A model generated the notes under the pieces. That model did no database searches, was not told where the DNA came from, and saw only the letters and a list, made by a program, of their open reading frames with translations. Made by a program: the position numbers and the translations under genes. DNA of 64,000 nucleotides. It comes from an uncultured Candidatus Micrarchaeota archaeon. GTDB taxonomy: Archaea; Micrarchaeota; Micrarchaeia; Anstonellales; Bilamarchaeaceae. The stretch covers positions 20,141 through 84,140 of the forward strand of contig CAIKOA010000032.1 in NCBI GenBank assembly GCA_903828955.1, written 5' to 3'. Below are positions 18,885-39,946 of this stretch, piece by piece (position 1 is the stretch's first letter; every line of letters starts with the position of its first letter).

Positions 18885-18935
18885 CAATCCCCCAATAATT
18901 CCGCTTTTTATTCCTTCCCACGGTAATACCTCCCA

Positions 18936-19760: not shown

Positions 19761-19777
19761 TTCTAAATTTCAATCCG

Positions 19778-19852: not shown

Positions 19853-19910
19853 AGAGCCCTTCAGGGGGAGCGCCCCCTAAAGTGCTTCACCCCCAGCAAC
19901 CCCCCATCAC
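19853..19910. repeat. Hairpin-bearing small repeat element, short copy B (internal-deletion derivative of copy A)
   Basis: agagcccttcagggggagcgccccctaaagtgcttcacccccagcaaccccccatcactt shares both termini with 15368-15514. The hairpin lies at 19863-19878. It abuts the trm5 stop at 19911. Confidence 0.55.
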
Positions 19911-20960: not shown

Positions 20961-21021
20961 CGTTCCTCCATTTGCTTATTAGGATTTAAATAATATCTTC
21001 CACAAATCCCAAACGGTAAGA

Positions 21022-21897
21022 ATGCAGAAAGAAGAATACCTAAGCTGGCTTTCCAAATACACGGACGCGGAAGCCTGCGCTTCCGCACAGGAAGACCTTT
21101 CCTACTTCATCAGGGTAAACACCCTCAAGACCAGCGTGGAAAATTACCTGGATTGGACCGGCTTGGAGCTCGAGCCCACCCTCCTCCCTTATGCATTCAA
21201 GGTAATTTCCCCTCCGGAAGGAGGCCTCGGAAACACTTTGGATTTCGCAACCGGCTGCATCCATACGCAGGCCCTCTCCTCAATGCTTCCCCCGCACATC
21301 CTAGGCCCATCCAGAGAAGACACACTTCTGGATATTTGCGCAGCCCCAGGATCGAAAACCACCCAGTGCGCCGCACTAATGCAGAATAGGGGAGCAATTC
21401 TCGCAAACGACTCCAACCGCGGAAGGATAAGCGCACTCTCAGACAACCTTGAGCGCCTGGGCGCAATCAACGCCTCTACCTCAAACCGGAACGGCGCAAT
21501 CTTTGCGCACCCGCACAAATTCTCAAAAGCACTCGCAGATGTCCCCTGCTCATCGCTAGGAAGCAACCCCGGTGCATTCGAGCACTGGAACCTGAACTTC
21601 TCCAAAAGCATCTCTCCCCTGCAATTTTCCATTCTCCGCTCCGCATTCGATTCACTTCAAGAAGGCGGAACACTGGTCTACTCCACCTGCACCTATGCTG
21701 AAGAGGAAAACGAAAAGCCGGTTGCCCGCCTTCTCTCAGAAAACCCGCGCGCGCGTTTAGAAAAAATAGAAGGCATCCCAAACACGCATCCAGGAATTTC
21801 AGATTACGGAAGCGAATTTCGCAACGCAGCGCGCGTTTACCCCCACGAATTCGGAAGCGAAGGCTTCTTCCTTGCAAAAATAAAGAAGGAGGGATAA
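21022..21897 (+). CDS. RNA cytosine-C5 methyltransferase, NOL1/NOP2/Sun family
   Basis: It has IRVNTLK, the SAM motif LDICAAPGSKT, DVPCSSLGS (motif IV Cys) and LVYSTCTYAEEENE (motif VI Cys). The C-terminal is GFFLAKIKK. Confidence 0.85.
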   Translation: MQKEEYLSWLSKYTDAEACASAQEDLSYFIRVNTLKTSVENYLDWTGLELEPTLLPYAFKVISPPEGGLGNTLDFATGCIHTQALSSMLPPHILGPSREDTLLDICAAPGSKTTQCAALMQNRGAILANDSNRGRISALSDNLERLGAINASTSNRNGAIFAHPHKFSKALADVPCSSLGSNPGAFEHWNLNFSKSISPLQFSILRSAFDSLQEGGTLVYSTCTYAEEENEKPVARLLSENPRARLEKIEGIPNTHPGISDYGSEFRNAARVYPHEFGSEGFFLAKIKKEG

Positions 21898-21898
21898 T

Positions 21899-22315
21899 AT
21901 GGAATCGGAACCCGAAAAATTTACCCAATATGTCCTGGAAAGGTTCGGAATTCCAATTCCAGACTGGGTGAAAATAGAAGGAAAAAGCAACCTCCGCATG
22001 ATGAGCTCCGAACTCCAAAACTTCCAAACCACAACCCCAAAAGGGATACCCGCCGCAAATATGAACGGAGTTTTCCCAAAGCCCTCCACCTCCTTCCTGC
22101 AATTATTCGGAAACCTCGCAACAAAGAATGTAATTGAGTTGGAAAAAGAAGATGCTCTCAAATTCGCAACCCGCGAAAACCTCCAAACTCTCCAGAATGC
22201 AGAAACCGGCTACGTAATCCTCAAATACAAGGGAGCCACCCTGGGCTGCGGCTTCTACAAAGAAGGAAAAATAGAGAACTTCTTCCCCAAGCAGAGGATG
22301 ATTACTCTAAAATGA
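21899..22315 (+). CDS. Hypothetical protein immediately downstream of the NSUN methyltransferase (possible RNA-binding accessory or split C-terminal domain)
   Basis: The ATG is 1 nt after the NSUN stop. It has protein-like composition and no recognisable motif. Confidence 0.35.
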   Translation: MESEPEKFTQYVLERFGIPIPDWVKIEGKSNLRMMSSELQNFQTTTPKGIPAANMNGVFPKPSTSFLQLFGNLATKNVIELEKEDALKFATRENLQTLQNAETGYVILKYKGATLGCGFYKEGKIENFFPKQRMITLK

Positions 22316-25028
22316 TTGCGGGCTTCCCAGGGGCTGCAACCGAAGCCTTCTCGTGCCCCGCTGCAGCATCCGCCTCTTTCTTCACGACCACTCTAGCCCC
22401 AAGCTCCTTGGAAAGGAATTCCGAAGCATCAAAGAGCGCAGAGAATTCAACTTCCTCAGAAAGCGCAGGCTGCAATGCATGCACCCTCTTCATCAATCCC
22501 TTTGCAAATGCAGCCGCTTTCCCCATGTCCGCCTTGTTCTTGCGCGCCCACTCAAGTGCGGGATTCATATTCTTGCTTTCGCGCATCTCCTCGTACACTC
22601 CTCTTTTCCATTCCGATGCCGTGTATACATAAACCTTCTCAGGCGTCTTCCCGAACCTTTCCGCAATCTTCTCCGCATCATAAATGAGTTCGGAAATCAC
22701 CCTCTCTCCAGCTTCTATTTCATCATCGATCGCATCCTCATCCGCATGCGGGAACCTTTCATTGACCGCAAAACCCTTCTTCCCAAGAGCATGCCAAATC
22801 TCTTCAGAAAGGTGCGGCATGAATGGAGAAAACGCAATCGCCCACTTCTCAAAGAAGGTTTTCAACGCAGGCTTTTTCGCCCTCTTCATATACCAGTGGA
22901 GTTCCTGCGTCATCTCGTAGAAAAGCATCTGCCCAAGCTCCCGCAGCGCCATGTTTGCATAAAGTTGCGGCGCCTCCTTCAATTTCCTGTTTAAGCGGGA
23001 GCGGAGCCATTTCTCTGCCTGTCCATCCCTATCTGTCCTCGCATACTCAAGAAGGGCAAGCAAATCCCCGACCCTTTCCTTTACCCCGACCGCAACGCTT
23101 TTTTCGAAGTTCGTATCCTGGGAAAGGTCAGCCCCCGCCACAACGGAAAATCTAATCACGTCCGCCCCGTATTCCCTTACTGCTTTCCGCAGCGGAAGGA
23201 TATTCCCGAGAGATTTGCTCATTTTTTTCCCTTCCATGAGCACAAACCCGTTCACTACGATGCTTTTCGGCCACTGCGCAGGAGGGAAAATCGCCGCATG
23301 GTTCAATATGAAGAACGGAAGGTGGTTGCGCACAAGGTCTGCGCCCGAGTGCCTCGCATCCAGCGGGTACCAATAAAGGAATTTCTTCCTTAGCATTTCC
23401 GCTTTCGGGTGCACCTCCTTCCTTCCCCTTCCCAAAAATACATAATCAAAAAATTGCGGAGTGAGTTCACTGGTTTTCATTCCCTTGAGCTCATGCGCAA
23501 CCGTATAGAACGCCATGTAAATTGTTGAATCCGAAAGCGGCTCCACAATTTTTGTCTCATCAAATGGGAATTTCGTCCCCAAGCCCGAAGAACGCGTGCA
23601 AGCCTTCTCTTTCAGCCAGTCAATCGTATTCAGGTATTCCTTGCGGGTAATTTCCGGCACAATGCTCATCTGGCCAAGGCACTCCTTCGCCTTGTTCTTC
23701 CATTCCACATTCCCATAATCTATGAACCACTGGTCATCCACTTTCTTGACTACAATTTTGCATCCGCACCTGCAGAATACCGGCCCATTCGCAAGCACAT
23801 AAATCGTAAATGCTTTCCCTTCCTTCTCGAATTTCTCCCCGACCTTCTCCTTCGCTTCCATAACCGGCATTCCGGAGAACTCCCCTGCCTTCATCCTTCC
23901 CCAGTGCGCCTCTTTTTTGTAAAGCTCCCTGGTTGCAGTATCCGCAAGCGGGTCCGTTGTATCCTTTACCCCTAATTTCTCCACATATTCCTGCGCAGGA
24001 ATTGGCGCGCTCCCCCGGTACTCAATTATCGAAATAGGGGGAACCTCCTTCAATTTCCCGATTTCCCGCAGCGCAAGATAATCAAATGGGGCATGCGCGG
24101 GCACGCTCATCACTATTCCCGTCCCAACCTCCTGCTCCACAAACCGGGCCTCGAATACTGGAATCTTCTTCCCAAGCGGGCTCTCCACATTTTTCCCGAT
24201 AATTTCCTTTGCGGAAACCTCCCCAACTACTTTCCCGCTCACCTGCAGGGAGAGGGATTCCCACGCCTCTTTTGCAAAATAGAGCATTTCCCCGCTATCC
24301 ACCTTCACCTTTACAAGAGTAGATTGGGGATTCAGCCACACATTCGTAACCCCATAAACCGTTTCCGGCCGGTAAGTGCTCACAACCAGATATTCTCCCG
24401 CACTAAGGGCAAACTTAATCGCAACCACTTTCTCTATTTCCGGGTCCACATCCCCTTTCGTATCGTGAGAGCTCACCACATTATTGTCCGATGGGCACCA
24501 TGCAAGCCTGTGGCTCCCCTTCACAATAAGCCCCATCTCATGCAATTTCTTCATGTGCCACTCTATGAATTTGTTGAAATGCGCATCAAAGGTATAGAAT
24601 TTCCTCCTCCAGTCTATCGCATACCCCATCTCCTTCATTCCCTGCTCGATTTCCTCTGAAAAATACATCACTAATTTCTCAGGCTCCCCAAGCTCTGCAA
24701 ATTTAGAAGAAGGAATTCCATAAATATTGCTGAAAATGGAGAGCAATTCCGGGTCTTTCTCCCTCACCTTTTTCGCCATCGCAAGAATAGGGGTACCGGT
24801 AACGTGGAAAGCCATGGGCAAAAGCACATTCTTCCCATTCAATCTTGCATAGCGCGCATGAATGTCCAGAATAGTATAAGTTCTGCCGTGCCCGATATGC
24901 TGGGGCGAATTCGGGTAAGGAAAAGCGGCAGTATAGAATTTTTTCTCCCCTCCCTCATCCAGAGGCTCATAAACATGGGCATCTCCCCATTCTTTCTGCC
25001 ATTTCTCCGCAATCCCTGTTAAATCCAT
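22302..25028 (-). CDS. leuS: Leucyl-tRNA synthetase (archaeal type)
   Basis: HIGH is PYPNSPQHIGHGRTY and KMSKS is KMSKSLGN. Length is 908 aa, with an editing domain. Confidence 0.9.
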   Translation of the reverse strand: MDLTGIAEKWQKEWGDAHVYEPLDEGGEKKFYTAAFPYPNSPQHIGHGRTYTILDIHARYARLNGKNVLLPMAFHVTGTPILAMAKKVREKDPELLSIFSNIYGIPSSKFAELGEPEKLVMYFSEEIEQGMKEMGYAIDWRRKFYTFDAHFNKFIEWHMKKLHEMGLIVKGSHRLAWCPSDNNVVSSHDTKGDVDPEIEKVVAIKFALSAGEYLVVSTYRPETVYGVTNVWLNPQSTLVKVKVDSGEMLYFAKEAWESLSLQVSGKVVGEVSAKEIIGKNVESPLGKKIPVFEARFVEQEVGTGIVMSVPAHAPFDYLALREIGKLKEVPPISIIEYRGSAPIPAQEYVEKLGVKDTTDPLADTATRELYKKEAHWGRMKAGEFSGMPVMEAKEKVGEKFEKEGKAFTIYVLANGPVFCRCGCKIVVKKVDDQWFIDYGNVEWKNKAKECLGQMSIVPEITRKEYLNTIDWLKEKACTRSSGLGTKFPFDETKIVEPLSDSTIYMAFYTVAHELKGMKTSELTPQFFDYVFLGRGRKEVHPKAEMLRKKFLYWYPLDARHSGADLVRNHLPFFILNHAAIFPPAQWPKSIVVNGFVLMEGKKMSKSLGNILPLRKAVREYGADVIRFSVVAGADLSQDTNFEKSVAVGVKERVGDLLALLEYARTDRDGQAEKWLRSRLNRKLKEAPQLYANMALRELGQMLFYEMTQELHWYMKRAKKPALKTFFEKWAIAFSPFMPHLSEEIWHALGKKGFAVNERFPHADEDAIDDEIEAGERVISELIYDAEKIAERFGKTPEKVYVYTASEWKRGVYEEMRESKNMNPALEWARKNKADMGKAAAFAKGLMKRVHALQPALSEEVEFSALFDASEFLSKELGARVVVKKEADAAAGHEKASVAAPGKPAIILE

Positions 25029-25109
25029 GAAAATTACCCATAACTGCTGCTTTACAGAATTAGATTCTGAAACTATATATTTATATTAGTTATTCGCAGA
25101 AATACGCCC

Positions 25110-26303
25110 ATGCAGGCGCCAGCGGTCTTTATGCTTCCGCTACTTCAGGGGACACTTCATGACCTATCTCCTGACATAATGCCGCCCTTCGTATATATCG
25201 CCCTCATCACAGCCGCGGGCATAATCGCCCTCTACTATCTTCTTGGAAAATTCCTGGATTCCCCGCAGATAAACGCATTTGCAAAGGAGGAATTCTCCCA
25301 ATTGGTCTTCTCAATAGGAATAGTCGGGCTTTGGTTTTTCTTCTACCAGGTCGCAACAGCCATTTATTCAGCCGCCGTATGCGGGTCAGAGTCGTGCAAC
25401 ATGTTCGAGGTTGCCTTCTACTCCCTCTCAATCGTCCAATCCAAGCTTTTTTCTGCCTACATCAGCTACCTCTCAATTGAAACCTTCGTGAGCATTTTCT
25501 CAACAATAGGGTTCTCCCTCCCTCTAGGTTTCCCAATCCTCGGGGTAAAATGGCTAAGCCTCTCTCCGCTGGGGGGCCTTGGCCTCCTTAGCAACGTAAT
25601 AGTAACGATTACGGAATCCCTGGGTATGCTCCTTGGGCTCGCCATAGGGCGGCAGCAGCTCCTTGCCCTATTTGAGCAGATAGTGCCCGCGGTTTTGCTT
25701 CCCATGGGGCTCCTCCTGCGCTCGCTCCCGTTTACGCGCTCCACCGGCTCCAGCCTCATCGCATTCTCCTTCGCCGCCTTTTTCATTTTCCCTGCCTCAA
25801 TTGCGTTTTCCCACTACCTGATGTTTTCACTTTACCAACCCACCTTCATCCCCCAGGCCCCCACCTTTGACGGGTTCTGCTTTGACCCCAATAACCCGAC
25901 TGACAAGGCAGCCGCCTCAACCGAATTGCAGGATAACATCGCGCGCGCCGAACATTTCATGACCGACGACATGGACCCAAGCTATGACAGTTATTGGTTC
26001 AGGCTCTCAGAGCTCACCGTGGATTCCGGCAAAGCCCTCAAGTCGACATATAGCAACGGCAAAGACTTCATTTCGGATACCTTCTCCCTCAGCAACCTGG
26101 TCTTCGCGCTCGTCAAGCCGACCACGTTCGGATACATATTCTTCACCCTCGTCACCGACCGCCTGCAGGACGTTGCCCAGCTTGCGGTCCTCACAACCGT
26201 AACTTTCGTATTGGAAATAATAATAACCGTTACCGGATACCGTGCGATTTCAGGAATTCTTGGAGGCGAGATGGAAATCCTCGGCCTCACAAAGGTGGTC
26301 TGA
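25110..26303 (+). CDS. Paralog 1 of a six-member tandem family of polytopic membrane proteins (unknown function)
   Basis: It has N-terminal TM + GKFLDSPQ, the LLPMGLLLRSLPFTRSTGSSLIAF signature, a variable exo-domain, and a C-terminal TM + GGEMEILGLTKVV*. Confidence 0.6.
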   Translation: MQAPAVFMLPLLQGTLHDLSPDIMPPFVYIALITAAGIIALYYLLGKFLDSPQINAFAKEEFSQLVFSIGIVGLWFFFYQVATAIYSAAVCGSESCNMFEVAFYSLSIVQSKLFSAYISYLSIETFVSIFSTIGFSLPLGFPILGVKWLSLSPLGGLGLLSNVIVTITESLGMLLGLAIGRQQLLALFEQIVPAVLLPMGLLLRSLPFTRSTGSSLIAFSFAAFFIFPASIAFSHYLMFSLYQPTFIPQAPTFDGFCFDPNNPTDKAAASTELQDNIARAEHFMTDDMDPSYDSYWFRLSELTVDSGKALKSTYSNGKDFISDTFSLSNLVFALVKPTTFGYIFFTLVTDRLQDVAQLAVLTTVTFVLEIIITVTGYRAISGILGGEMEILGLTKVV

Positions 26304-27239
26304 ATGCTCGCTCTGGACCCCTTCTACCTGGAAATAATCGGAATCGCAGTAGTTGGGATGGCCGCATACATCGCAATCCTCTACATGGCATCCAAATTCC
26401 TCGGCCGCCCGCAGCTCACAGCTTACGCAAACGTTGAGCTGAACCAGCTCGTCGCATCAATCGCAATCCTGGTACTGGCGTTCTTCATAGCGGAATTCGC
26501 AACCACTTTCTCGCAGGCGGTTTCGGGCAGTGACGGCACCCCCATAGACATCTCGGTCAATTTCCTCTCAAAGGTGGTGAACAGGGGCGTGCTCCCGACC
26601 TATTTCGACCTTGTGCGCAGCGAAGTGGTCCTCTCTTACTTCAATTCGCTTGAATACAGGATGGGCCCGGGCGTATGGAACTGGACGACAAAGGCGGTCC
26701 CTGGCCTTGAGCCAATCCTCTCGATAGTGCGCATGCTCGTATTCACCTACACCGCGCTTTATGGAACCCTCAGCATCCAGATAGTCATTTTCCGCTTCAT
26801 AGACGCATTCATGTACACTTTCTTCCTTCCCGCGGGGGTAGTGCTGCGTTTTTTCCCGCCGACGCGGGATGCGGGAATATTCCTCATAGTGATGGCAATC
26901 GCATTCCAGTGCTTTTTCCCCATGCTTTACGCAATCAACTCCACCGCCCTTGATAGCATGTGGTCTCTCCACGGATGGTCGAATGGATACGACCCGCAGG
27001 CAGAGGACATCCAATATTCAGAAGGGATAAGGGCGCAGGCAAGCACAATCCTGGATTTCGGAAACACGATTTCAGACTTTCTCCCGATCTTCCAGCCGTT
27101 TTCGTTCCTCACTTTTCTCCCAACCCTGGACCGCGTGGCCGAAATCTCGCTTGCAGCATTATTCCTCCCTGCATTCTCCATGGGGCTCACGATTGCATTT
27201 ATTAACGCCACAACAAAATTCCTAACCGGAAAGGGATAG
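26304..27239 (+). CDS. Paralog 2 of the six-member membrane protein family
   Basis: It has SKFLGRPQ and FLPAGVVLRFFPPTRDAGIFLIVM. The start overlaps the previous stop (TGAATG). Confidence 0.6.
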   Translation: MLALDPFYLEIIGIAVVGMAAYIAILYMASKFLGRPQLTAYANVELNQLVASIAILVLAFFIAEFATTFSQAVSGSDGTPIDISVNFLSKVVNRGVLPTYFDLVRSEVVLSYFNSLEYRMGPGVWNWTTKAVPGLEPILSIVRMLVFTYTALYGTLSIQIVIFRFIDAFMYTFFLPAGVVLRFFPPTRDAGIFLIVMAIAFQCFFPMLYAINSTALDSMWSLHGWSNGYDPQAEDIQYSEGIRAQASTILDFGNTISDFLPIFQPFSFLTFLPTLDRVAEISLAALFLPAFSMGLTIAFINATTKFLTGKG

Positions 27240-27240
27240 C

Positions 27241-28452
27241 ATGTTGCTCTTGGAACAGATGTTTTCAGACTGGTCGTTGGTGGCCGTTGCGGCCGTGATG
27301 GCAACCACCGCGGTCTATGTGCTCGTCTACCTTTTCGGCCAGTTCCTTTCCGATGAAAAAGTAATCGCCTATGCAAAGCTCGGCTTCGTCGACCTCATCT
27401 ATTCGGGATTCCTGCTCGTAGCCACGGTCTTCATCCTCGGGCTTGCAACCGAAGCCGCAAACGGGTTTGTGGAAACGGCCCATCCCCTCGGCGCGCAAAT
27501 CTGCAGCACCGGCTACGAGGTTCTGCATCCCGATTATGCAAACATGCCCTGCTACATCCGCGGCGCAAAGAACTACCTGGACACCCTCTATATAGAAGGC
27601 AAGGCATTCAACTATCAACTGCTCACGATGAGCATCTGGTTCTCCTTTTTCCAGGGAATAGGGATAAACGCGGATTTCCATGAGCACGCAACCGGAACCG
27701 TCCAGTTTTCGCCAATAGGGGGCGCATTTACCGTTCCCCTGGGGATATATACCTACATGTTTGAATTCGCCTCGAAAGCCCTCATAATGATAAGGTTCCA
27801 GCAGTTCTTCCTCTACTTCATAAACATCGCCCTTTTCCCCGCCCTCACCGTGATTGGGCTGATCCTGCGAATATTGCCGTTCACGCGCAAGCTCGGTGGG
27901 CTTCTGATGGCAATTGGCATCTCACTTTTCTTCGTTTTCCCAATGTTCTATGTAATGGGGGGAATAGTGCTCGAGAACATCCGCAAGGATCAGACGAACC
28001 CGAGCGACCCGGTAATCGGCACCTTCAATTTCGACAGCAACGCATTCTACCAAAAACTGGGCGTTGCAGCAACGGCCGACCAGCAGGACTATGAAGCGCT
28101 TCTAAACGACCCGAATTTCGCATACAAATCCGCAGGGGACCTCCAGAATAAGGTGAAAGGCCTCAACTATTGCACCGCCTCAACAGCCGGTGACATATCC
28201 ACCCTCCAGACAATCGCGGACACCGTGAAGCAGCTCGTCTATGCAATTGATTTCACAGGCATCGTCTCCAATGAAGACTACATCAATTCGCTTGTGGGCC
28301 CAGGAGGCGTAATCGACGGAACCGCGCGCCTCGTATTCTTTTCAATGTTCTTCACATTGCTCTCAGTTTTCTCAACGGTTGGCGCAGTAAGGGCGCTGTC
28401 GCCGCTCCTGGGGGGAGATACGGAAATCGCAGGGCTTACGCACCTGATATGA
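27241..28452 (+). CDS. Paralog 3 of the six-member membrane protein family
   Basis: It has GQFLSDEK and LILRILPFTRKLGGLLMAIG. The C-terminus is GGDTEIAGLTHLI*. Confidence 0.6.
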   Translation: MLLLEQMFSDWSLVAVAAVMATTAVYVLVYLFGQFLSDEKVIAYAKLGFVDLIYSGFLLVATVFILGLATEAANGFVETAHPLGAQICSTGYEVLHPDYANMPCYIRGAKNYLDTLYIEGKAFNYQLLTMSIWFSFFQGIGINADFHEHATGTVQFSPIGGAFTVPLGIYTYMFEFASKALIMIRFQQFFLYFINIALFPALTVIGLILRILPFTRKLGGLLMAIGISLFFVFPMFYVMGGIVLENIRKDQTNPSDPVIGTFNFDSNAFYQKLGVAATADQQDYEALLNDPNFAYKSAGDLQNKVKGLNYCTASTAGDISTLQTIADTVKQLVYAIDFTGIVSNEDYINSLVGPGGVIDGTARLVFFSMFFTLLSVFSTVGAVRALSPLLGGDTEIAGLTHLI

Positions 28453-28465
28453 GGGATAAAACGGA

Positions 28466-29605
28466 ATGCACGCAAACATGAAAATCCTGCTCGTTTTCCT
28501 GCTTCTCCTCAGCTGCGCGTTTGCAGATGACACCCCGAGCACCACGGATTTTTCCAACCTGGACACGACCGCAGGCAAGATAGACGACCAGATAACCGCC
28601 TCTCTTGAAGATTCCGGCATCCTCACAGGGGCCTGCTCCGCAGACCCGGATGGCAGCCTTGTCTCGCTCCTTGGGCCGGCAATGCTTGCGCTCATCCTGG
28701 TCTCCTTCGGAATCGCCATCTTCTACATGGTGGGAAAATTCCTGGATTCCCCGCCCCTTGTGGCCATTGCAAGGAGCGAAACACTTGAAGTGATCAACAC
28801 CGCATTGATAGTGATACTCTTCGCCGCCTTTGTCGCATTTGCAGGAAACATTGTTTTCGGGGGGCAGCCAGACGCGGTTTTCAACAAGTCGATAAACTAT
28901 TCTTCTGTAATGATACATAAGATCTCCAAGGACATGTTCTGGCTTTCAGCATTGAACACCCTCATCCACATGCTCTATGCGGCGCCGCTGCGCCTCGGAG
29001 TCCTCTACCACGCAGTACGCTTCAACCTCGGTGGCCTGCTGAAACCCTTCGTGGACGGAATCGGGACGATGGCGTCCCTCCTTTCATTTGCCCTCGGCGA
29101 GTGGATAGCCAACCTGAATGTGCTCTGCTTTATCCAGAAATTCGTGCCAACGGTACTTCTTCCAATCGGGGTGATTTTCCGCAGCCTTCCCCAGACAAGG
29201 GGAGGGGGCAACGCGATAATCGGGTTCGCAGTCGCGCTCTTCCTTGTTTATCCATCGATGATATACCTGAACTTCCAGGCGTACCAATACCAGTTCGGGA
29301 CCGTTGAGTCAAGGAGCAATATCCAGGAAATAACCAAGGACTTCACGCTCTATAGCGGGGTTGGCGCCTTTACGGTCGGCTTCATCTGGCTTCGCTCAAT
29401 TACCGGAATGCTGATCGGCCTTCCTTTCCTGCTAGGGCTCATCACAACCGTAATAGACGTTTATGCGGATGTCCTGTACACTGTTTTCGTGCTGAGCATC
29501 ATGCTTCCGCTATTGAACATCTTCATCACGCTCACAGTGGCGCGTGAGGTTGCAAAATACCTGGGCACTGAGATCAATATAAGCGCATTCACCAAGCTGA
29601 TATGA
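28466..29605 (+). CDS. Paralog 4 of the six-member membrane protein family (has cleavable-looking N-terminal signal peptide)
   Basis: The N-terminus is MHANMKILLVFLLLLSCAFADD. It has GKFLDSPP and LLPIGVIFRSLPQTRGGGNAIIGF. The C-terminus is GTEINISAFTKLI*. Confidence 0.6.
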   Translation: MHANMKILLVFLLLLSCAFADDTPSTTDFSNLDTTAGKIDDQITASLEDSGILTGACSADPDGSLVSLLGPAMLALILVSFGIAIFYMVGKFLDSPPLVAIARSETLEVINTALIVILFAAFVAFAGNIVFGGQPDAVFNKSINYSSVMIHKISKDMFWLSALNTLIHMLYAAPLRLGVLYHAVRFNLGGLLKPFVDGIGTMASLLSFALGEWIANLNVLCFIQKFVPTVLLPIGVIFRSLPQTRGGGNAIIGFAVALFLVYPSMIYLNFQAYQYQFGTVESRSNIQEITKDFTLYSGVGAFTVGFIWLRSITGMLIGLPFLLGLITTVIDVYADVLYTVFVLSIMLPLLNIFITLTVAREVAKYLGTEINISAFTKLI

Positions 29606-29611
29606 GGGGTA

Positions 29612-30685
29612 ATGAAAATGGGGATACTGGCAACGGCGCAAATCTGCAACCATTCTTCAATCACCGAAGTGTTCTTCATCCCCGAGTGGCAATCCCTTGC
29701 GTTCCTTGCGCTTGTCTGCTCTGCGGCGCTGCTCGCGATTGCCTACATGCTGAACCGCTTCCTCAACAATGAAGAAGGGCAGGTCGCCCTGAAGCTGGAG
29801 CTTTTCGAGCTCTTCGCAACCGCATTCGTAATCTTCGTTTCTATAGGGCTTGTGCAGTCTGCCTGCGAGGTCGAAGCCAGCGGCATATTCTTCGATCCCC
29901 AGCACATGCAGGCGGGAGACAATCTTTTTGATGCGGCCGAAGCGGTCCTCCAGGATTTCTCCGTGGACCTTGCACTGGCGATGACGGCCCTGCACACTGT
30001 GTACATCCCCATTGATTTCCAGACCACCACCACGCTCACGATGCAGCCCATGGGCCTAGGTACCGTCATCCAGCCCACTTCAGGAATCGGCGCAATCGTG
30101 AAGCCGGCAATGCTGAACGCGATGCAGGCAATAGCGCTTGCATACATCGTAATACGCGCGGAGCAGTTCGTCCTTGATTTCTCCACCTATGCGCTCATCA
30201 CTTTCTATTTCCCTATAGGCATCATTCTCCGTTCCTTCACCCCTACCAGAAGGATAGGGGGGACCATAATCGGGCTCGTGCTCGGGCTCGTGCTGGTGTT
30301 CCCGTTCCTCATCATCCTCAACGGCGCGGTTGCCTTCAGCATCTGGCCGAACGTAAATCCCTTTTCGTTCACCGATTCGGATTGGGATAACCTGAAAAAC
30401 TTCACAACCGGCTCCTTTACCGGGATGTTTGGCTCGCTTACCGGCATTTCGGACCTTGCGAATCCGTTCAATTTCTTCTATGCGATCAACCAGCTAATCG
30501 GGGGCACATTCGGGGCAATAATCGGCTTCGTGATATTCTTCTTCATGCGCAGCGCAGGGGCCGCCTTTTTCATAGGGCTCTTTTTCCCCGCCCTCAACAC
30601 CCTCCTGCTGGTCACAACGGTCCGATACATTACAAAATCCCTCGGTGAAGAGATAGATGTGACAAACCTGACGAGGCTGATCTGA
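29612..30685 (+). CDS. Paralog 5 of the six-member membrane protein family
   Basis: It has NRFLNNEE and YFPIGIILRSFTPTRRIGGTIIGL. The C-terminus is GEEIDVTNLTRLI*. Confidence 0.6.
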   Translation: MKMGILATAQICNHSSITEVFFIPEWQSLAFLALVCSAALLAIAYMLNRFLNNEEGQVALKLELFELFATAFVIFVSIGLVQSACEVEASGIFFDPQHMQAGDNLFDAAEAVLQDFSVDLALAMTALHTVYIPIDFQTTTTLTMQPMGLGTVIQPTSGIGAIVKPAMLNAMQAIALAYIVIRAEQFVLDFSTYALITFYFPIGIILRSFTPTRRIGGTIIGLVLGLVLVFPFLIILNGAVAFSIWPNVNPFSFTDSDWDNLKNFTTGSFTGMFGSLTGISDLANPFNFFYAINQLIGGTFGAIIGFVIFFFMRSAGAAFFIGLFFPALNTLLLVTTVRYITKSLGEEIDVTNLTRLI

Positions 30686-30686
30686 A

Positions 30687-31718
30687 ATGGAGTCCTGGGA
30701 AACAATCACGATAATCGCGGTACTGCTCTCCTTTGCGATTTCCGCGGTCATGATAATGTTCTCGCGGCTTTTCCAGCTCCCCGCCCTTGAGCAGTGGGCA
30801 AAAGCCGAAATGGTCTTCACAATCTCCACAGTGGTGCTCGTAATCTGCATTTTCGCGCTGATTGATGTGATCCAGCCCGTAATTGTGCAGATAGTGAGGG
30901 ACATGACCGAAGCGAATTTCGCCTCCACCACCGGGCAAACCCTCCTTTCCCCTGACAATGCAACCCTGATGGATTTCGCCCTTGCCTACATGAAATCCGT
31001 CTTCACCTGCATAACGGGGATCCTCAAATTCCTTATGAAGCTCTCTTTCCCAGCAGAGATGGCCGCCTCTTTCACCACCGATGCCTTCATGTTCGACCTT
31101 GTGACTGGCTGGGCGTTCAAGAGCGTGGTGCAAAGCATCCGGAACGTCGCCAACTACATGACCTTCACTATCTTCATATACTATGTTTTCGTGCACATAA
31201 TGCGCTTCATCCAGGCAACCGCATTAACTGTTTTCCTTCCAGTTGGAATCGTGCTGAGGCAGTTCCCCCCCACCCGCGGCTCCGGCGCGTTCATACTCGC
31301 ATTCGCCCTTGGATTTTATTTCGTATTCCCGTTTGCCTACATAATCGCAGTGAACATCGCTCCGCAGACAATGGCTTGCCCGATAGTTCCTGAGTTCGAT
31401 TACATTCCCGCAAGCTGCGGCTCCGCAAACCCAGACAGCGCATTCGCGTCCACGCTCTGGGTTGAATCAAGCGGAAACAGGGTTTTGAACTTCCTGAACT
31501 CCCTTGGCACATACATTTCCGATGTTTCCCTTGACCCGTTCAGCGTGGTTCCGGATGCCCTTGAATTTACCGGAGGGCAGCTGACCGGTTTTGCAATCAA
31601 CCTCTGCTGCCTGCCCTTCCTTGCGATGGTAATCACGATGAGCTTCATCCTTTCCACAACCAACCTTTTCGGCGCCAATCTGCCGGAGGTGGGAAGGGGA
31701 TTCGTCAAGTTAATCTAA
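30687..31718 (+). CDS. Paralog 6 of the six-member membrane protein family
   Basis: It has FLPVGIVLRQFPPTRGSGAFILAF. The C-terminus is LPEVGRGFVKLI*. It begins 1 nt after the paralog 5 stop. Confidence 0.6.
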   Translation: MESWETITIIAVLLSFAISAVMIMFSRLFQLPALEQWAKAEMVFTISTVVLVICIFALIDVIQPVIVQIVRDMTEANFASTTGQTLLSPDNATLMDFALAYMKSVFTCITGILKFLMKLSFPAEMAASFTTDAFMFDLVTGWAFKSVVQSIRNVANYMTFTIFIYYVFVHIMRFIQATALTVFLPVGIVLRQFPPTRGSGAFILAFALGFYFVFPFAYIIAVNIAPQTMACPIVPEFDYIPASCGSANPDSAFASTLWVESSGNRVLNFLNSLGTYISDVSLDPFSVVPDALEFTGGQLTGFAINLCCLPFLAMVITMSFILSTTNLFGANLPEVGRGFVKLI

Positions 31719-31730
31719 TTCAATTTCAAT

Positions 31731-32708
31731 TTATTTTTTCTCTTTAGTCCATAAGTAGTGGTAGAACGGGCTCTTCTCCGCCCCGCTCTTCAATAATTCA
31801 ATATCATATCCTTCCTTCTCAATCAATTTAATCTTCTCATCAATTTCTTCCTCACTAAGATAATCCATCCGTTTCATCTCAACCGCAAATACTTTCTCGT
31901 GAAGAATCCTCTGCACAAACTCATCCTGGTGCTCCACCTTACCCCCGCACCTCCTCCCCATGAATCCAAAATCTATATCCACTGTGGGCTGCCCCCCATA
32001 TTCGCGCACAACCGACTCATTCCAAATCTCTGGAGGCAATTCCGTAATCTCCCCCTCCCCATAGAATCCATACTCAAATATGCTAATCCCTCCTCCCTCG
32101 CGCAATTTCTTCTTCCATTCCTCCACAATCCCAATCGCCCGCAAATTCACCGGAATCCAGTAAAGTTCCGGAGCCCCCTTCATCCGCTCCGCAGCAATTT
32201 TCGGAGGCTTGCTCTCCTCTGCAACCGCAATCTCCCCATTATTCTCCCCCACCTCGTAGATTTTCTTCCCCTTGCGCATGAATACGCGCGCAGGCACATC
32301 GTCCAAAAGCTCATTCGCCCGAACCCAGAACGCCTCCTTCATTTTTGCGCAATCCTCCGCAGGCGCACAAACGCTTTCCACAGAAAACTCCTTCAAATTC
32401 TCCTGCGCCTCCTCCAGCATTTTCGCGCTCACATCCCAGAGCATATATGCAATCCGTTTCCCAACCGAAGAATCCAGTGCATTCACTTCTTCCAAAAAGT
32501 TCCTCGCAAACTGCCCATCCCCAACCCCAAAATCATAAACCCTTAATTCCCCTTCCACATTGCGCGCATATGGAATAAACTCAAATGCGCATGCCCTCCC
32601 CAATCTCCGTGAAGCAGCAAAAGTCTTGAAATCCGAATAAATTCCCTTTCCCTTTTGCGAATAATACTTTCTATTTTCCTCTTCCATGAACGTTTCCACG
32701 GTCTTCAT
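31731..32708 (-). CDS. Putative class I SAM-dependent methyltransferase
   Basis: A motif-I-like block (VYDFGVGDGQF) is followed by an acidic post-I residue (YMLWDVS). No specific family was recognised. Confidence 0.45.
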   Translation of the reverse strand: MKTVETFMEEENRKYYSQKGKGIYSDFKTFAASRRLGRACAFEFIPYARNVEGELRVYDFGVGDGQFARNFLEEVNALDSSVGKRIAYMLWDVSAKMLEEAQENLKEFSVESVCAPAEDCAKMKEAFWVRANELLDDVPARVFMRKGKKIYEVGENNGEIAVAEESKPPKIAAERMKGAPELYWIPVNLRAIGIVEEWKKKLREGGGISIFEYGFYGEGEITELPPEIWNESVVREYGGQPTVDIDFGFMGRRCGGKVEHQDEFVQRILHEKVFAVEMKRMDYLSEEEIDEKIKLIEKEGYDIELLKSGAEKSPFYHYLWTKEKK

Positions 32709-32761
32709 GCCTCAGTTCTCCCCCCGAAAACAATAATAACCATATCTTTGAAATAGCAGCC

Positions 32762-33319
32762 ATGGAAAGGTTCGTCCTCGATACCAGCCTGTTCGTAAAC
32801 CCCGCCTGCAGAACGCAGTTCGGGAAAGACCCGGGAGCCGCAATAAAGGGCTTCGTAAAGAAGGCAAGTTCCAAAAAGAATAAGGCAGACTTCTTCATGC
32901 CGCCAATCGTATTCACTGAGCTTGAGAATTTCGCAGGAAAGGATGTTTCCAAACTGGCAACACTGGTGAAGAAGCGCGCCCCGAATGTATACGGAATATT
33001 CATCCCAGCCGCGATCCTCTACTCTTATACGGAAGATGTGCGCCTCCGCATAAACAAGGGCCTCCATCTTGCGGAAGAATACGCAAGGGATAATACTCCT
33101 GATAATGCAGCAAAGGTAAACAAGCTCAGGGAACGCTACCGCGACTCGATGCGAAAAGGCTTAGTAGATAGCAAGGAAGACCTGGAAATAATCCTCCTCG
33201 CCTACGAACTCGGCGCAAGGATAGTCACCGCAGATGAAGGAATAATCCGCCTCGCAAACCAAATCGGAGTGGAATGGATAGAAGCAGGGGAATTCGGAAA
33301 CCTTCTCAAAGCACTCTAG
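32762..33319 (+). CDS. PIN-domain protein resembling HARP (homolog of Aquifex RNase P, PIN_5 family)
   Basis: It is about 185 aa. The N-terminal is FVLDTSLFVNP. It has FFMPPIVFTELE, VRLRINKGLHLAEEY, LRERYRDSMRKGLVDSKEDLEIILLAYELGARIVTADEGI. Assignment to HARP specifically is from memory of the Aq_880 family. Confidence 0.5.
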   Translation: MERFVLDTSLFVNPACRTQFGKDPGAAIKGFVKKASSKKNKADFFMPPIVFTELENFAGKDVSKLATLVKKRAPNVYGIFIPAAILYSYTEDVRLRINKGLHLAEEYARDNTPDNAAKVNKLRERYRDSMRKGLVDSKEDLEIILLAYELGARIVTADEGIIRLANQIGVEWIEAGEFGNLLKAL

Positions 33320-34389
33320 TCTGCCTGCGAATAGCCTTCAATCGCCCTGCGCACCTGCTTGCTTCCCTGCCTGAATATTTTCCTGAATTTAATCCTGAAC
33401 CCATTTCTTTCCCGCACAGGAGGCTCGGCCTTAATCTCCACCTCATGCGACATATGCGAAGTTATTTTCTTCCAGGTGTCCATGCTCTTAACCAGAATTT
33501 CAAAATTCTCGGAAACTTCCCCCTTATTCTTAATTGAAGAATAAAGCCCGGAGTGCATCGCCTCCCCAAGCCTCTTATCGTATTCACTCTTATCCAATCC
33601 GAGTTCCGAAATCGAAATCGCAGACCTGAACACCCTCTGCTTCATGAACCCGATCGGCATATCAAAGATTTGCGCGGAATTCTCCCTCAGATCCCGTATA
33701 TCCGAAGAAGGAACCACGAATTTCAAAACCTTGCGCGGGTTATCCTGCCTCATAACCATTCCTTCAGAGCCGCGCTTATCCAGGGAAACCGCAATCTCCT
33801 TCAACTTCTTAATCTCCGGAGTTTTCGTGTGCCCAAGGAAAGGAACAGCAGAAAGCCCGAATTTCTCGCAGAGGTGCATCCTCTCCATGTAATGCACAAA
33901 ATCATTTTTCCCATTCCCAATATCGAATACGAAATAGCGAACATCAAATTCAGAAGTGGGCGCAGTATACGGGGTATTCCCAATCATTTCAAAGTGAAGG
34001 ACCAATCTCGGATATTTGGAAAAGAACCTCATCACTTCCGGAAATCCCGCCATCTTCTCGGTTGCAAAATAATCCAAAAACCCGCCGCGCGAAACGCAAT
34101 ACAATTTCCCGTTCTCATAAACCGCGCGCAAATTGAACCCATCTATTTTCTCTTCAATCCAGAGCTCCTTCTCCTCATCTAAATTCTTATTAACTCCCTT
34201 TTCTAAGGAAAAAACCCGCCTTATTTTCGGATATCCATAAACAACCCGTTTTCCAATCACAACAGTTCCGCGGGGAACCTCATCCCCGATTGATTCCGTA
34301 AACCTGTAAATCCCATCCTTCTTCTCAACCCTTCCCTTGCCTATTGCCTCAAGTATTTTCCTCTTTAGGGAGCTCTTCAGGTCTTCCAT
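33316..34389 (-). CDS. ATP-dependent RNA ligase, archaeal Rnl3 / Pab1020-MthRnl family
   Basis: Nucleotidyltransferase motif I is EEKIDGFNLRAVYENGKLYCVSRGG (KxDGxN). Length is about 357 aa, consistent with archaeal RNA ligases. Confidence 0.65.
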   Translation of the reverse strand: MEDLKSSLKRKILEAIGKGRVEKKDGIYRFTESIGDEVPRGTVVIGKRVVYGYPKIRRVFSLEKGVNKNLDEEKELWIEEKIDGFNLRAVYENGKLYCVSRGGFLDYFATEKMAGFPEVMRFFSKYPRLVLHFEMIGNTPYTAPTSEFDVRYFVFDIGNGKNDFVHYMERMHLCEKFGLSAVPFLGHTKTPEIKKLKEIAVSLDKRGSEGMVMRQDNPRKVLKFVVPSSDIRDLRENSAQIFDMPIGFMKQRVFRSAISISELGLDKSEYDKRLGEAMHSGLYSSIKNKGEVSENFEILVKSMDTWKKITSHMSHEVEIKAEPPVRERNGFRIKFRKIFRQGSKQVRRAIEGYSQAD

Positions 34390-35904
34390 CTAGTTCTCTC
34401 CACCCTCTTTATGCCTATGGGTAGGTTCTTTCTCGGAGTGCGCATGGACTTTTTCTCCACCCCTTTCAACTTCCTTCTTATGTTCATGCGGTTCCTTATG
34501 CAAAGGAGTTTCCTTATGCGGAGGCTTCTGAGAATGCACTTCCTCCTTTTTGGCGGGAAGAGGCTGCTTCCGGTTCTCAATCACTTTTTGCACAATCCGT
34601 TTATCCGCGGCAGCACGCGCCTTCTCAGCCTCTTTTCTGGCAAGAACGTCGTCCTCATCTTCATCCTCGTCGCCGCCCACGCGCACATTCCTGGTAGTGA
34701 TCCTCACTCCAATCGCAGTGAATACGATCGAAGCAACAATCACCACAAACGCAATCTGCGTGAAGGCTTCAAATTGATTATAGAGTGTCCAGTAGGCATA
34801 CGGGGTAATTTTCCCCACGCTGTCCGCAATCATCGTAACCGGGTACATCGCAAGGATTGCGGCCGCAAGCCCGCGCGGCATCAAAGACCGTATCTGGCCC
34901 TCGTTCTCCGTTAATTCGCTCTTGAACAGGGCAAGCTTCACCGCAATGAACCTCGCAACCATGAGAATTACCGCAATTCCAACCCCAATCAATACCACGT
35001 TCAAGTCCGTGATGCTCACAATCATCCCAAGGAATACGAACACAAAAGTGCGCACAAGGAAGGAAATCTCCTCCTGGAACTGCACCATCCTGGGCTCATG
35101 GGTGACATCCTTGAATTTCAGCATCTTCCCGATCTCGGTAGCGTTCCCAAGCATCATTCCAAACATAAGCGCTGCAATTGCGCCGCTTCCTCCCATGAAC
35201 TCCGTAAGTATGTACAATCCAAGCATTAGCGCAAGCGTAAGCATGTAGTAGAAATGCAATTTCCTCATCTTGCTGCTGAGTGCAAGCCAGGCCATCCCGA
35301 ATATTCCTCCAAGAACAGCCCCAATGGAGAAAGCCGCAATCATGTTCCTCGTGGTCCCTTCCACGCTTGCGTGGCCAGAAATGACCGCCTCAATCAGAGA
35401 TAATACAAGCACCGCGCCAACGATATCTGTCATTGAGGACTCAATGGTAACCGTCTGCCTCGCCTTTCCGCTTATGGGCATTCCCTTTGCAATGGGAATC
35501 ACTATTTCCCCTGCGGTTCCGGATACGATTACCCCTAAGATAAGCCCGGTAATCAAATCATGCCCGAGCCCCACCCATACTCCCGCAACCAGCAGCGCCG
35601 CAAGCCCCATCCCCACACTCCCAAGAAGGACCCCTCTTCCGCTCTCGTGTATAATCTTGTATAAGTTCATCTCCAGCCCGCCTTCAAGCAGGAGTATTAC
35701 CAGCGCGAGAGGCGCAACAATATACTCAATGCTGAGCATTAAGTTTACATCAACTATGTGCGTGACCGGACCCAAAGCAAGCCCCGCTGCAAGCAAAATA
35801 AGCGGGGAAGGAATCATGAACCTCCTGAAAAGAACCTCTCCCAAAAACCCGACAAAAATTATTCCCGCAATAATTGCAAACGCTATCAGGGTCTCAATCA
35901 TCAT
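34390..35904 (-). CDS. Na+/H+ (cation:proton) antiporter, CPA1/NhaP type, with hydrophilic K/E-rich C-terminal tail
   Basis: It has 10-13 predicted TM helices over the first ~400 aa with NhaP-like organisation. The tail is charged (HKEPHEHKKEVERGGEK...). Confidence 0.7.
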   Translation of the reverse strand: MMIETLIAFAIIAGIIFVGFLGEVLFRRFMIPSPLILLAAGLALGPVTHIVDVNLMLSIEYIVAPLALVILLLEGGLEMNLYKIIHESGRGVLLGSVGMGLAALLVAGVWVGLGHDLITGLILGVIVSGTAGEIVIPIAKGMPISGKARQTVTIESSMTDIVGAVLVLSLIEAVISGHASVEGTTRNMIAAFSIGAVLGGIFGMAWLALSSKMRKLHFYYMLTLALMLGLYILTEFMGGSGAIAALMFGMMLGNATEIGKMLKFKDVTHEPRMVQFQEEISFLVRTFVFVFLGMIVSITDLNVVLIGVGIAVILMVARFIAVKLALFKSELTENEGQIRSLMPRGLAAAILAMYPVTMIADSVGKITPYAYWTLYNQFEAFTQIAFVVIVASIVFTAIGVRITTRNVRVGGDEDEDEDDVLARKEAEKARAAADKRIVQKVIENRKQPLPAKKEEVHSQKPPHKETPLHKEPHEHKKEVERGGEKVHAHSEKEPTHRHKEGGEN

Positions 35905-35913
35905 CTTTATCGC

Positions 35914-36426: not shown

Positions 36427-36554
36427 CTGCCTCGCCCCTTTATTCAAATTAATATTTTTAAAGGGAACAGGAATTTCCCCAAAATGATACTTATTTAAGC
36501 ACATTTTAACATATTCTACTATATTATCATGAAATAACCCGGATTTAGGGAAGT

Positions 36555-39942: not shown

Positions 39943-39946
39943 GGAA

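Follow-up and report, generated by a model that had tools for sequence, protein, structure and literature searches.

The proteins that come closest to those described here are the VirB6/TrbL proteins of type IV secretion systems (T4SS), e.g., TrwI of plasmid R388 (7o3v). VirB6 comprises about seven long helices, five of which are hydrophobic and which lie partly outside the membrane, and it assembles into a homopentamer, with the oligomer forming a cone at the base of the trans-envelope structure (PMC9259494). It is encoded by one gene, most often on a mobile element, with those for VirB4, VirB5, VirB8 and further components as neighbours. Archaeal VirB6-like proteins, CedA and TedA, are chromosomal and "domesticated" and have been recognisable only by profile methods; the Ced and Ted loci combine one CedA/TedA gene with linked genes for a VirB4-like ATPase and for a pilin of VirB2-like type (PMC9905601). 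These DNA-import loci occur in Sulfolobales and Thermoproteales. Several VirB6 paralogs in tandem are found in the Rickettsiales (rvhB6a-e; virB6-1 to -4 in Anaplasma and Ehrlichia), where the arrays run head-to-tail and are lineage-conserved in host-dependent cells. The Rickettsiales paralogs measure ∼600-1,400 aa, carry clear PF04610 domains, and lie inside an otherwise complete T4SS gene set.

A block of six tandem genes from a Micrarchaeia (DPANN) archaeon, the sextet in the following, resembles these systems in part. On balance, we favour the reading that it is one operon for six differentiated subunits of a single integral-membrane complex. Within the window, i.e., the whole 64-kb stretch of DNA analysed, six same-strand ORFs of 311-403 aa have been found exactly where a preliminary description had placed them (25110-31718):

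25080..25087, + strand: TATA-box-like TTTATATT, 23-30 nt 5' of the first ATG, read from the sequence
25110..26303, + strand: subunit 1, 397 aa, orthogroup 1; signature loop RSLPFTRSTG at aa 204-213; tail GGEMEILGLTKVV
26304..27239, + strand: subunit 2, 311 aa, orthogroup 2; the minimal member, which alone lacks the C-terminal tail
27241..28452, + strand: subunit 3, 403 aa, orthogroup 3; largest and most variable outer insert; tail GGDTEIAGLTHLI
28466..29605, + strand: subunit 4, 379 aa, orthogroup 4; cleavable-type signal peptide and acidic N-terminal extension ahead of TM1
28466..28525, + strand: signal peptide of subunit 4 (aa 1-20), cleavable-type
29612..30685, + strand: subunit 5, 357 aa, orthogroup 5; signature loop RSFTPTRRIGG at aa 207-217; tail GEEIDVTNLTRLI
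30687..31718, + strand: subunit 6, 343 aa, orthogroup 6; the most conserved member; variant tail GANLPEVGRGFVKLI

The intergenic gaps amount to 0, 1, 13, 6 and 1 nt; where a TGAATG stop/start overlap had been claimed, the genes merely abut with a gap of 0, and overlaps of 1-4 nt have been seen at several junctions in relatives. Ahead of the internal genes there are SD-like motifs, and gene 1 alone is preceded by a TATA-like box, TTTATATT being a candidate archaeal promoter for a (near-)leaderless six-gene transcript. No enrichment has resulted from a sigma-70 motif scan, a model irrelevant to archaea.

The paralogy of the six proteins lies far above chance. In leave-one-out comparisons, for which profiles were built from other genomes only and with the protein's own orthogroup excluded, each paralog of the window has matched the profile of the other five orthogroups over its full length (E 1e-31 to 1e-37), and the six-way alignment contains eight invariant columns. 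As had been proposed, an N-terminal TM helix is common to the paralogs, whereas the (G/S)KFL..PQ-like loop has turned out clear in paralogs 1, 2 and 4 but degenerate in 3, 5 and 6. The signature loop LPxGxxLRxxPxTRxxG is shared, except that the Pro of "LP" is missing from paralog 3, which reads LTVIG, and the helix that follows the loop contains an invariant Pro. The C-terminal tail LGxExxIxxLT(K/R/H)L(I/V), expected in four to five members, has been seen in five of six; paralog 2 and all its orthologs are devoid of it and end in TKFLTGKG in all genomes. Residues conserved across all paralogs are the Glu that starts TM2, the Arg of "LR", the Arg of "TR", a Gly, and the C-terminal LGxE..LTKLI tail, and they are predicted to mark the cytoplasmic face. 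The divergent segment, previously put at 100-150 aa, is in fact a variable outer insert of ∼27-111 aa, depending on the paralog, which is completely different between paralogs and fast-evolving. The signal peptide ascribed solely to paralog 4 is real and kept in nine of nine genomes, but some position-5 orthologs elsewhere carry a lipobox-like N-terminus.

Exactly six tandem members are present in all 14 related contigs long enough to hold the whole array, to which the copy-number count was confined, and in one divergent lineage among them (L021) the block lies away from the LeuRS neighbourhood and is still intact. When nine genomes were compared gene by gene, 432 of 432 cross-genome best matches fell at the same array position, with scores of 270-356 bits for orthologs vs 26-63 bits for paralogs. 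The six genes therefore represent six 1:1 orthogroups of fixed order, which, judged from sequence, are ancient and non-interchangeable. Position-specific traits are likewise constant in nine of nine genomes: a signal peptide only at position 4, a tail absent only at position 2, and tail variants distinct for each position. Identity amounts to 59-72% in the TM3-loop-TM4 region and 53-80% in the last TM helix plus tail, vs 22-39% with many indels in the outer insert. The family comprises ∼2,960 cluster representatives, all named ones being of Micrarchaeota type, and 135 of 148 global representatives fall cleanly into one of the six orthogroups. These comparisons have shown the six-fold conservation to be phylum-wide at the sequence level; on the favoured reading, the complex would be a hallmark of Micrarchaeota.

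Since the same sextet recurs in each of the examined related contigs of Micrarchaeota that is long enough, its products probably form one multi-subunit envelope complex. A conceptual analogue is provided by MCM2-7, CCT and the proteasome α/β subunits, in which the paralog number is fixed as well and each paralog has clade-wide 1:1 orthologs, and therefore a non-exchangeable place in one assembly. These are, in contrast, soluble eukaryotic complexes whose genes do not form an operon, and they have no sequence or fold relation to the sextet. The hypothesis of a hetero-oligomer, suggested in the preliminary description, has been strengthened by the constant copy number, the positional orthology and the position-specific traits, and from these sequence patterns an obligate hetero-oligomer appears fairly probable. 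A point against co-assembly is that the single-chain model of paralog 5 is compact and self-contained, so that its fold does not require partners.

This model (md3550e8e0099; pLDDT 87.4, pTM 0.82) contains seven helices of ≥20 aa, of which numbers 1, 2, 4, 5 and 7 are hydrophobic, together with a β-hairpin; the long helices measure 52 and 59 residues. The AlphaFold model of paralog 1 (mc7d068408531; pLDDT 75) has a confident core, both having been computed as single chains only. The predicted topology of a subunit is N-out with five TM helices and C-in, and it is supported by charge and Cys statistics: per 100 aa, loops 1 and 2 contain 12 and 28 K+R residues, vs 4-7 in the outer regions, and Cys is almost entirely restricted to the N-tail, ECD1 and ECD2, being nearly absent from these two loops and from the C-tail. 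In the models, the TM helices are predicted to project outward and to pack with an amphipathic helix and the β-hairpin into an extracytoplasmic bundle, and the fast-evolving insert between TM4 and TM5 is predicted to face outside. The tightly packed and likely translationally coupled genes would deliver six subunits in equal amounts, and these could line up next to one another as a hetero-oligomer in the shape of a ring or cone. Its shared inter-subunit or partner-docking surface would then be provided by the cytoplasmic loops and tails that the subunits have in common, and its stalk base or funnel by the outward helical bundles. Such a complex might provide a stationary platform or conduit in the membrane, comparable to the role of VirB6 in type IV secretion, that moves or anchors something across the envelope of host-dependent cells; the assignment of a VirB6-like platform or conduit role is tentative and, in our estimate, has the chances against it.

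Regarding known families, the six proteins have indeed remained unrecognised, without a match in NCBIfam, PHROGs, PADLOC or PDB sequence profiles. In Pfam, the sole matches have been DUF6790 (E 0.0063; 16.8 bits vs a cut-off of 27.1) and a spurious GCSF, so that no permease, known transporter or enzyme family reaches threshold in curated Pfam-A or NCBIfam. A FlaJ/T2SSF/PilC-like platform has been rejected as well, as none of the six matches PF00482, a profile that the two genuine T2SSF genes of the window (12779-14753) match at 1.5e-16 and 5.7e-20. By sequence, the sextet has thereby been shown to lie outside every known family searched. An argument from cell-surface context made earlier fails because the immediate neighbours are housekeeping genes (LeuRS, methyltransferase, PIN_5, RNA ligase) and the block has moved intact in L021.

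The strongest rival holds that the sextet is a domesticated, highly diverged T4SS part, i.e., that its members are true homologs of VirB6, CedA and TedA and make up the pore through which a conjugation-like apparatus passes DNA or protein across the membrane, with the genes for its ATPase and pilin located elsewhere in the genome. Both families are polytopic inner-membrane proteins of ∼300-400 aa, and for the sextet, as in VirB6 (PMC9259494), about seven long, mostly hydrophobic helices extending beyond the membrane are predicted; VirB6/TrwI has been the recurrent best polytopic structural neighbour. The helix count of the model is equal, and the order (VirB6 α1, α2, α5-α7) fits only with polar helix 6 as an insert. 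With a broader profile (A6), the top local hhalign match of the full profiles to VirB6, a lead that counts for the favoured reading as well, has been the signature loop itself, LPxGxxLRxFpxTR in the sextet vs GPIfIxxLlfxxT[KH] in VirB6, both with identical P-x9-(P)T-[KRH] spacing after a hydrophobic helix and at equal distance from the N-terminus (∼residue 180-215). CedA and TedA, archaeal polytopic membrane proteins too, document that it can take sensitive comparisons of profiles or structures to reveal an archaeal relative of VirB6 (PMC9905601). Every measure of similarity is, however, sub-significant. The A6 match has reached a probability of 1.5-2.7% (P 0.017-0.035) and a score of 24, vs 15-16 in reversed or shuffled controls, with one of 110 shuffles reaching 24 and an unrelated pair of VirB6 and Na/H exchanger scoring 23.6. 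A narrow profile (A5) has given probabilities of 0.2-0.5% against VirB6 alignments, Foldseek against 7o3v an E of 0.52 and a TM of 0.17-0.22, and none of the six matches PF04610 at E≤1, a domain present in all the genuine VirB6 proteins of R46 relatives. The β-hairpin, variable outer insert and conserved C-terminal tail of the sextet have had no counterpart detected in the VirB6 alignments used. A confident profile match of the core to a characterised family had been named beforehand as a refutation, and the weak, recurrent VirB6 resemblance goes part of that way, below a confident level.

The genomic setting differs, too. VirB6 is a one-gene homopentamer, not a hetero-hexamer, a point against our favoured reading. 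The sextet consists of six fixed chromosomal paralogs in a housekeeping, phylum-wide context rather than a mobile element, which speaks against the rival. Among the scanned ORFs of the 64-kb window, several of which are without any Pfam match, no T4SS family (VirB4/CagE_TrbE, TrbC/VirB2 etc.) has been matched, and the ±10 kb flanks in four relatives (L001-L003, L023) contain neither a VirB4-type or CedB-like ATPase nor a VirB2-type pilin or any further T4SS gene, which counts against both readings; L021 has only a DUF87 (HerA-type) gene ∼9.5 kb from the block on the opposite strand. By description, the Micrarchaeota-only sextet is likewise set apart from CedA/TedA by its six paralogs and by the absence of a linked ATPase and pilin. 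The Rickettsiales arrays, in which several divergent paralogs run head-to-tail in a host-dependent lineage, offer a likeness in favour of T4SS descent. Overall, we regard such descent as rather doubtful.

Alternatively, the genes might encode six independent single-subunit membrane proteins, e.g., receptors, adhesins or transport proteins of differing specificity, that are co-transcribed and share no complex. Wholly different, fast-evolving outer inserts would be expected of ligand- or host-specific surfaces, and a monomer model that is confident by itself agrees with this. Birth-and-death families, however, vary in copy number and are not locked at six in fixed order; cross-paralog conservation concentrates on the cytoplasmic face and tail instead of a TM substrate path, there is no likeness to any transporter family, and spacings of 0-13 nt suit coupled translation and equal dosage, all of which renders independence improbable. 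A structural scaffold instead of a conduit, be it a membrane shaper resembling tetraspanins, peripherins or TTYH or an anchor for the S-layer, is very improbable. The Tweety homologs TTYH1-3 have five TM helices, N-out/C-in, and an extracellular helical bundle with a hairpin; TTYH2/3 have been the top Foldseek PDB matches of the paralog-1 model in full-length alignments, and an outward bundle with a variable insert would fit S-layer contacts. These matches are, however, non-significant (E ≥0.16, TM ∼0.17) and have not recurred with the better paralog-5 model, so that TTYH membership has been rejected, and in the genomes compared the sextet has no linked S-layer gene. Mobile elements often carry paralogs in tandem or proteins of VirB6 type, but nothing has been found in favour of a mobile or viral origin, e.g., as the membrane module of an integrated element. 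Such an origin is effectively refuted, given that no relatives were found in 72,556 plasmids (PLSDB), 50,697 phage records (INPHARED) or IMG/VR contigs, that PHROGs and PADLOC are silent, that the GC content of the block equals that of its flanks, and that synteny with MCM, SPP, Trm5 and LeuRS is kept across lineages at ∼40% identity.

Extending the favoured reading of one six-subunit membrane complex, one may speculate, with low expectation, that the sextet encodes an as yet undescribed hetero-hexamer, an envelope machine that defines the phylum Micrarchaeota. This VirB6-like cone of six differentiated subunits, ATPase-independent or remotely powered, would serve the host-dependent cells as a membrane gateway for exchanging lipids, metabolites or nucleic acids with Thermoplasmatales-type hosts, having arisen as a very deep offshoot of the VirB6 fold or as an independent invention. 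In L021, the position-3 ortholog is enlarged to 661 aa.

The six tandem membrane-protein genes (the sextet, numbered 1-6 in array order) span window positions 25110-31718, and the block with its flanks is composed as follows:

22302-25028, minus strand: LeuRS gene, upstream flank of the sextet
23-30 nt upstream of the gene 1 ATG: TATA-like TTTATATT, by sequence reading, only before the first gene
25110-26303, plus strand: paralog 1, 397 aa
26304-27239, plus strand: paralog 2, 311 aa
27241-28452, plus strand: paralog 3, 403 aa
28466-29605, plus strand: paralog 4, 379 aa
29612-30685, plus strand: paralog 5, 357 aa
30687-31718, plus strand: paralog 6, 343 aa
31731-32708, minus strand: Methyltransf_28 gene, downstream flank of the sextet

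Consecutive sextet genes are separated by 0, 1, 13, 6 and 1 nt, and SD-like GGTG/GAGG motifs have been found ahead of the internal ones. The TGAATG stop/start junction described earlier as an overlap is present, with the two genes abutting rather than overlapping. As both flanking genes lie on the opposite strand and a TATA-like element precedes gene 1 only, the sextet reads, at the sequence level, as a single self-contained transcription unit. Its GC content is that of the flanks, and at ~2,200 codons it makes up, in our judgement, a sizeable fraction of a small genome. The motifs that the preliminary description had listed as shared among the six proteins are real, except that paralog 3 lacks the Pro of the 'LP' in the signature loop (LPxGxxLRxxPxTRxxG); the C-terminal tail, LGxExxIxxLT(K/R/H)L(I/V), expected in four or five of six, has been recovered in five, and the outer variable segment, put at 100-150 aa, measures only ~27-111 aa.

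Related Micrarchaeota contigs have been located in the genome collection with an alignment of paralog-1 orthologs as query; the six-paralog alignment offered no sufficiently conserved stretch for a query, and the scan with a single paralog returned no match. With an HMM of the six paralogs, exactly six tandem members have been found in every related contig with enough room (complete arrays in L002, L003, L005, L006, L008, L009, L010, L014, L015, L016, L018 and the deeper lineages L021 and L023), while shorter contigs carry truncated arrays. Subunit sizes are constant across these contigs at ~400/320/425/400/355/335 aa. Within nine genomes, all 432 of 432 cross-genome best hits fall on the same array position, with scores of 270-356 bits between orthologs versus 26-63 bits between paralogs, at ortholog identities of only 31-62%; likewise, 135 of the 148 global representatives can each be placed in a single orthogroup, the median margin being 164 bits. 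This positional orthology and score gap show that the duplications predate the radiation of these lineages, no copy having been lost, gained or swapped. A block duplication among the paralogs, e.g., (1,2,3) to (4,5,6), has been rejected, as cross-paralog scores give no clean pairing. Contig L001 holds the same six members with the position-4 gene split into two ORFs (13464-14731); the gene is intact in the near-identical L002 (13464-14732), and the split is most likely an assembly or sequencing frameshift, not biology.

Synteny around the sextet is conserved in the order MCM, SPP, Trm5, LeuRS, sextet, PIN_5, RNA ligase, Na/H exchanger and CarS. In L021 the sextet remains intact among other neighbours, which argues for selection on the six-gene unit and not on its neighbours. 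The synteny of housekeeping genes between window 16833-36606 and contigs L001, L003, L015 and L023 is unusually well kept, the proteins being only ~40-50% identical; it includes the SPP as a presenilin-like protein, (RsmB) between Trm5 and LeuRS, and (MTase) before PIN_5. The divergent lineage L021 (15154-21986 and 9923-11986) also carries a position-3 subunit expanded to 661 aa and, on the same strand after the sextet, two giant genes of 1,218 aa and at least 1,723 aa (gaps of 23 nt and 75 nt, no Pfam hit on record), which may be lineage-specific partners of the proposed complex.

Neighbouring genes in the window are archaeal (MCM, CDP-archaeol synthase, Cdc6, archaeal-type pilus genes), and the named homologs are all from Candidatus Micrarchaeota, Micrarchaeia or Bilamarchaeaceae, plus one labelled 'ainarchaeum'; the paralog 5 protein is 77% identical to a Bilamarchaeaceae protein. 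HMMER, run exhaustively over 1.84 billion cluster representatives, has recovered 2,962 members at E≤1e-3, of which 2,175 reach E≤1e-10; none has a Pfam domain or an informative name. Scans of all six paralogs against Pfam, NCBIfam, PHROGs and PADLOC have given nothing usable, PDB sequence searches with profiles of 6 and 150 sequences have turned up nothing beyond an HBcAg fragment judged spurious (E 0.23), and Foldseek has given no PDB match at E<0.1, the top matches being TTYH2/3 (E 0.16-0.6, TM ~0.17). In the searchable literature on Micrarchaeota genomics, DPANN protein families and cryo-ET, no prior description of the family has been found, nor has a discussion of a double membrane in the text of the Bilamarchaeum paper. 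After these tests the sextet family belongs to no known family, and its function is a matter of inference.

The structural model of paralog 5 reaches a mean pLDDT of 87.4 and a pTM of 0.82 (150-sequence alignment), and that of paralog 1 is confident in the core. Both run through the same elements: TM1, then a short loop and a long helix that contains TM2, an amphipathic 35-residue helix and a β-hairpin, followed by a 49-52-residue helix ending in the LR..PxTR loop, TM4, the variable region, a 48-59-residue hydrophobic helix and a short C-terminal helix. Among 150 members, loops 1 and 2 carry 12.3 and 27.6 K+R per 100 aa, and the N-tail and both outer regions (ECD1, ECD2) carry 4.4-7.0. Cysteines average 0.85 per protein in the N-tail, 1.07 in ECD1 and 1.30 in ECD2, but do not exceed 0.02 in loop 1, loop 2 or the C-tail. 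This distribution, together with the signal peptide at position 4, points to five TM helices with the N-terminus out and the C-terminus in, and the subunits are predicted to extend a helical bundle and hairpin outward. The residues conserved family-wide (the Glu before TM2, the Arg of LR, the Arg of TR, the Gly and the tail) all fall on the cytoplasmic face of this predicted topology. Inside an orthogroup, identity is 59-72% over TM3-loop-TM4 and 53-80% over the last TM and the tail, but only 22-39%, with 15-40% gaps, in the outer insert between TM4 and TM5; this insert is predicted to evolve fast and to face the exterior.

Each position has its own traits in nine of nine genomes. A cleavable-type signal peptide and an acidic N-terminal extension occur at position 4 only, and the C-terminal tail is absent at position 2 only, where the protein ends in TKF(I/L)TG(K/R)G. 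The five other positions each have their own tail variant: GGE(L/M/I)EILGLTKVV, GGD(I/T/V)E(L/I)AGLTHL(I/V/L), GTEIN..AF.(K/R)L(I/V), GEE(I/V/M)D(V/I).NL(T/S)R(L/M)(I/V) and GANLPE(V/I)GRGF(V/I)KLI. Some position-5 orthologs have a lipobox-like start (…LLSGC…; L003 14634-15782, L005 5786-6910), and others, window paralog 5 included, have a conserved Cys in the short N-terminal tail, a hint of lipidation or disulfide bonding on the outside.

The fixed number of six, the orthology by position and the traits peculiar to each position suggest that every subunit has its own place in a single assembly, as in MCM2-7 or CCT, the same 'paralog ring' logic being here carried by a membrane protein. To our knowledge, such order-locked 1:1 paralog sets are rare in prokaryotes. 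The common cytoplasmic loops and tails would form a surface that all six share for assembly or docking. The long hydrophobic helices, which do not all fit into one bilayer, would be buried where subunits meet in an outward cone or stalk base, and the variable inserts would point to the exterior. Our functional hypothesis is a platform or conduit that serves exchange or a surface structure.

For a specific mechanism, VirB6/TrbL has offered the closest comparison. VirB6 is built of seven long helices, five of them hydrophobic, and assembles in the inner membrane as a cone of five subunits (PMC9259494). Its consensus GP-x9-PT[KH] has the same spacing as LP-x9-PTR of the sextet family. With a narrow IncN/IncW VirB6 profile, hhalign has been negative in full-length, global and region-restricted runs, with a probability <1% and a region-restricted score no better than that of shuffles (reached by 11 of 60); for R388, record NC_028464 was used in place of BR000038. 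With a broader 20-sequence VirB6 profile, no local alignment of the two full-length profiles scores above that of the signature loop, which lies equally far from the N-terminus in both (columns ~179-204 vs 178-203), the match being sub-significant (score 23.5-24.4, P 0.017-0.035, probability 1.5-2.7%). Among the controls, reversed profiles score 15.7 and 16.1, the real VirB6 score is reached by 1 of 110 block shuffles, and the sextet family scores 9.4-19.1 against six unrelated polytopic families; VirB6 against a Na/H exchanger, however, scores 23.6. The VirB6 likeness thus consists of three concordant signals, each sub-significant. The genes for the archaeal VirB6-like proteins CedA and TedA always occur in linkage with those for a VirB4-like ATPase and a VirB2-like pilin (PMC9905601), whereas neither partner has been found in the window or in the relatives' flanks. 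Given these sub-significant signals and the missing T4SS partners, we have not filed the family under VirB6. That the sextet works like VirB6 is, tentatively, our leading specific mechanism; slightly more doubtful is that better profile or structure searches would place the family as a very distant VirB6-like variant, and it is unlikely, at about one chance in four, that the six are true VirB6/CedA homologs of a dispersed T4SS-like system. The reading of the six as independent, diversified membrane proteins is improbable, since the count, orthology and traits, as we infer, do not fit a birth-and-death family of independent receptors or transporters. Less probable again is a membrane-shaping or S-layer-anchoring scaffold, and a mobile-element origin has been rejected, plasmids, phages and IMG/VR contigs having yielded no relatives.

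The Micrarchaeota are archaea of ultrasmall size, most of them dependent on a host, and we know of no molecular account of how they exchange material with hosts across two envelopes. The ubiquity of the sextet in sampled long-enough contigs, its core-chromosomal location, its ~2,960 representatives and its absence from Pfam-A, NCBIfam, PHROGs and PADLOC make the proposed assembly a candidate, open to test, for an envelope machine that defines the lineage. Should the VirB6 link be true, a T4SS-derived channel fold would reach DPANN archaea with a new stoichiometry and without its usual partners; if false, fold and complex would both be new. An organisation of six fixed paralogs, located in the chromosomal core, lacking an ATPase and restricted to one candidate phylum, has no described counterpart.

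Elsewhere in the window, the two pilus loci noticed previously agree with an archaeal type IV pilus-like locus (9311-15296, plus strand) and a second, pilin-type cluster (39157-43217, plus strand). The former encodes a T2SSE ATPase (617 aa, PF00437 at 1.7e-37), two T2SSF platform genes (12779-13678 and 13668-14753) and a 561-aa ORF (11076-12761) with no Pfam match that overlaps the end of the ATPase gene by ~90 nt; upstream lies a 614-aa protein (7450-9294) with a sub-threshold ATG17_like Pfam match. The latter contains several ORFs whose N-termini resemble archaeal class III signal peptides, namely MASNKGQIAVEF..., MKGQYFSFDAV..., an internal ..MNSMKGQAATEM... and a 587-aa protein beginning MKMDKKGFFFVIVAF...; one of these ORFs has a weak DUF7287 match. 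GC skew over window 1-64000 is negative in 29 of 32 2-kb bins (cumulative −4.16) whatever the gene orientation, and positive in only three (8-10 kb and 58-62 kb); lacking a switch, it gives no origin or terminus signal in the window, despite a Cdc6 gene at 56427-57500. Two giant plus-strand ORFs encode 1,439 aa (47557-51876, only a sub-threshold GH16 fragment match) and 1,293 aa (57576-61457, a SNAP/TPR-like segment), and a 553-aa radical SAM protein (62301-63962, minus strand) contains a LAGLIDADG_3 homing-endonuclease-like domain at residues 53-112, which may be an intein or endonuclease insertion.
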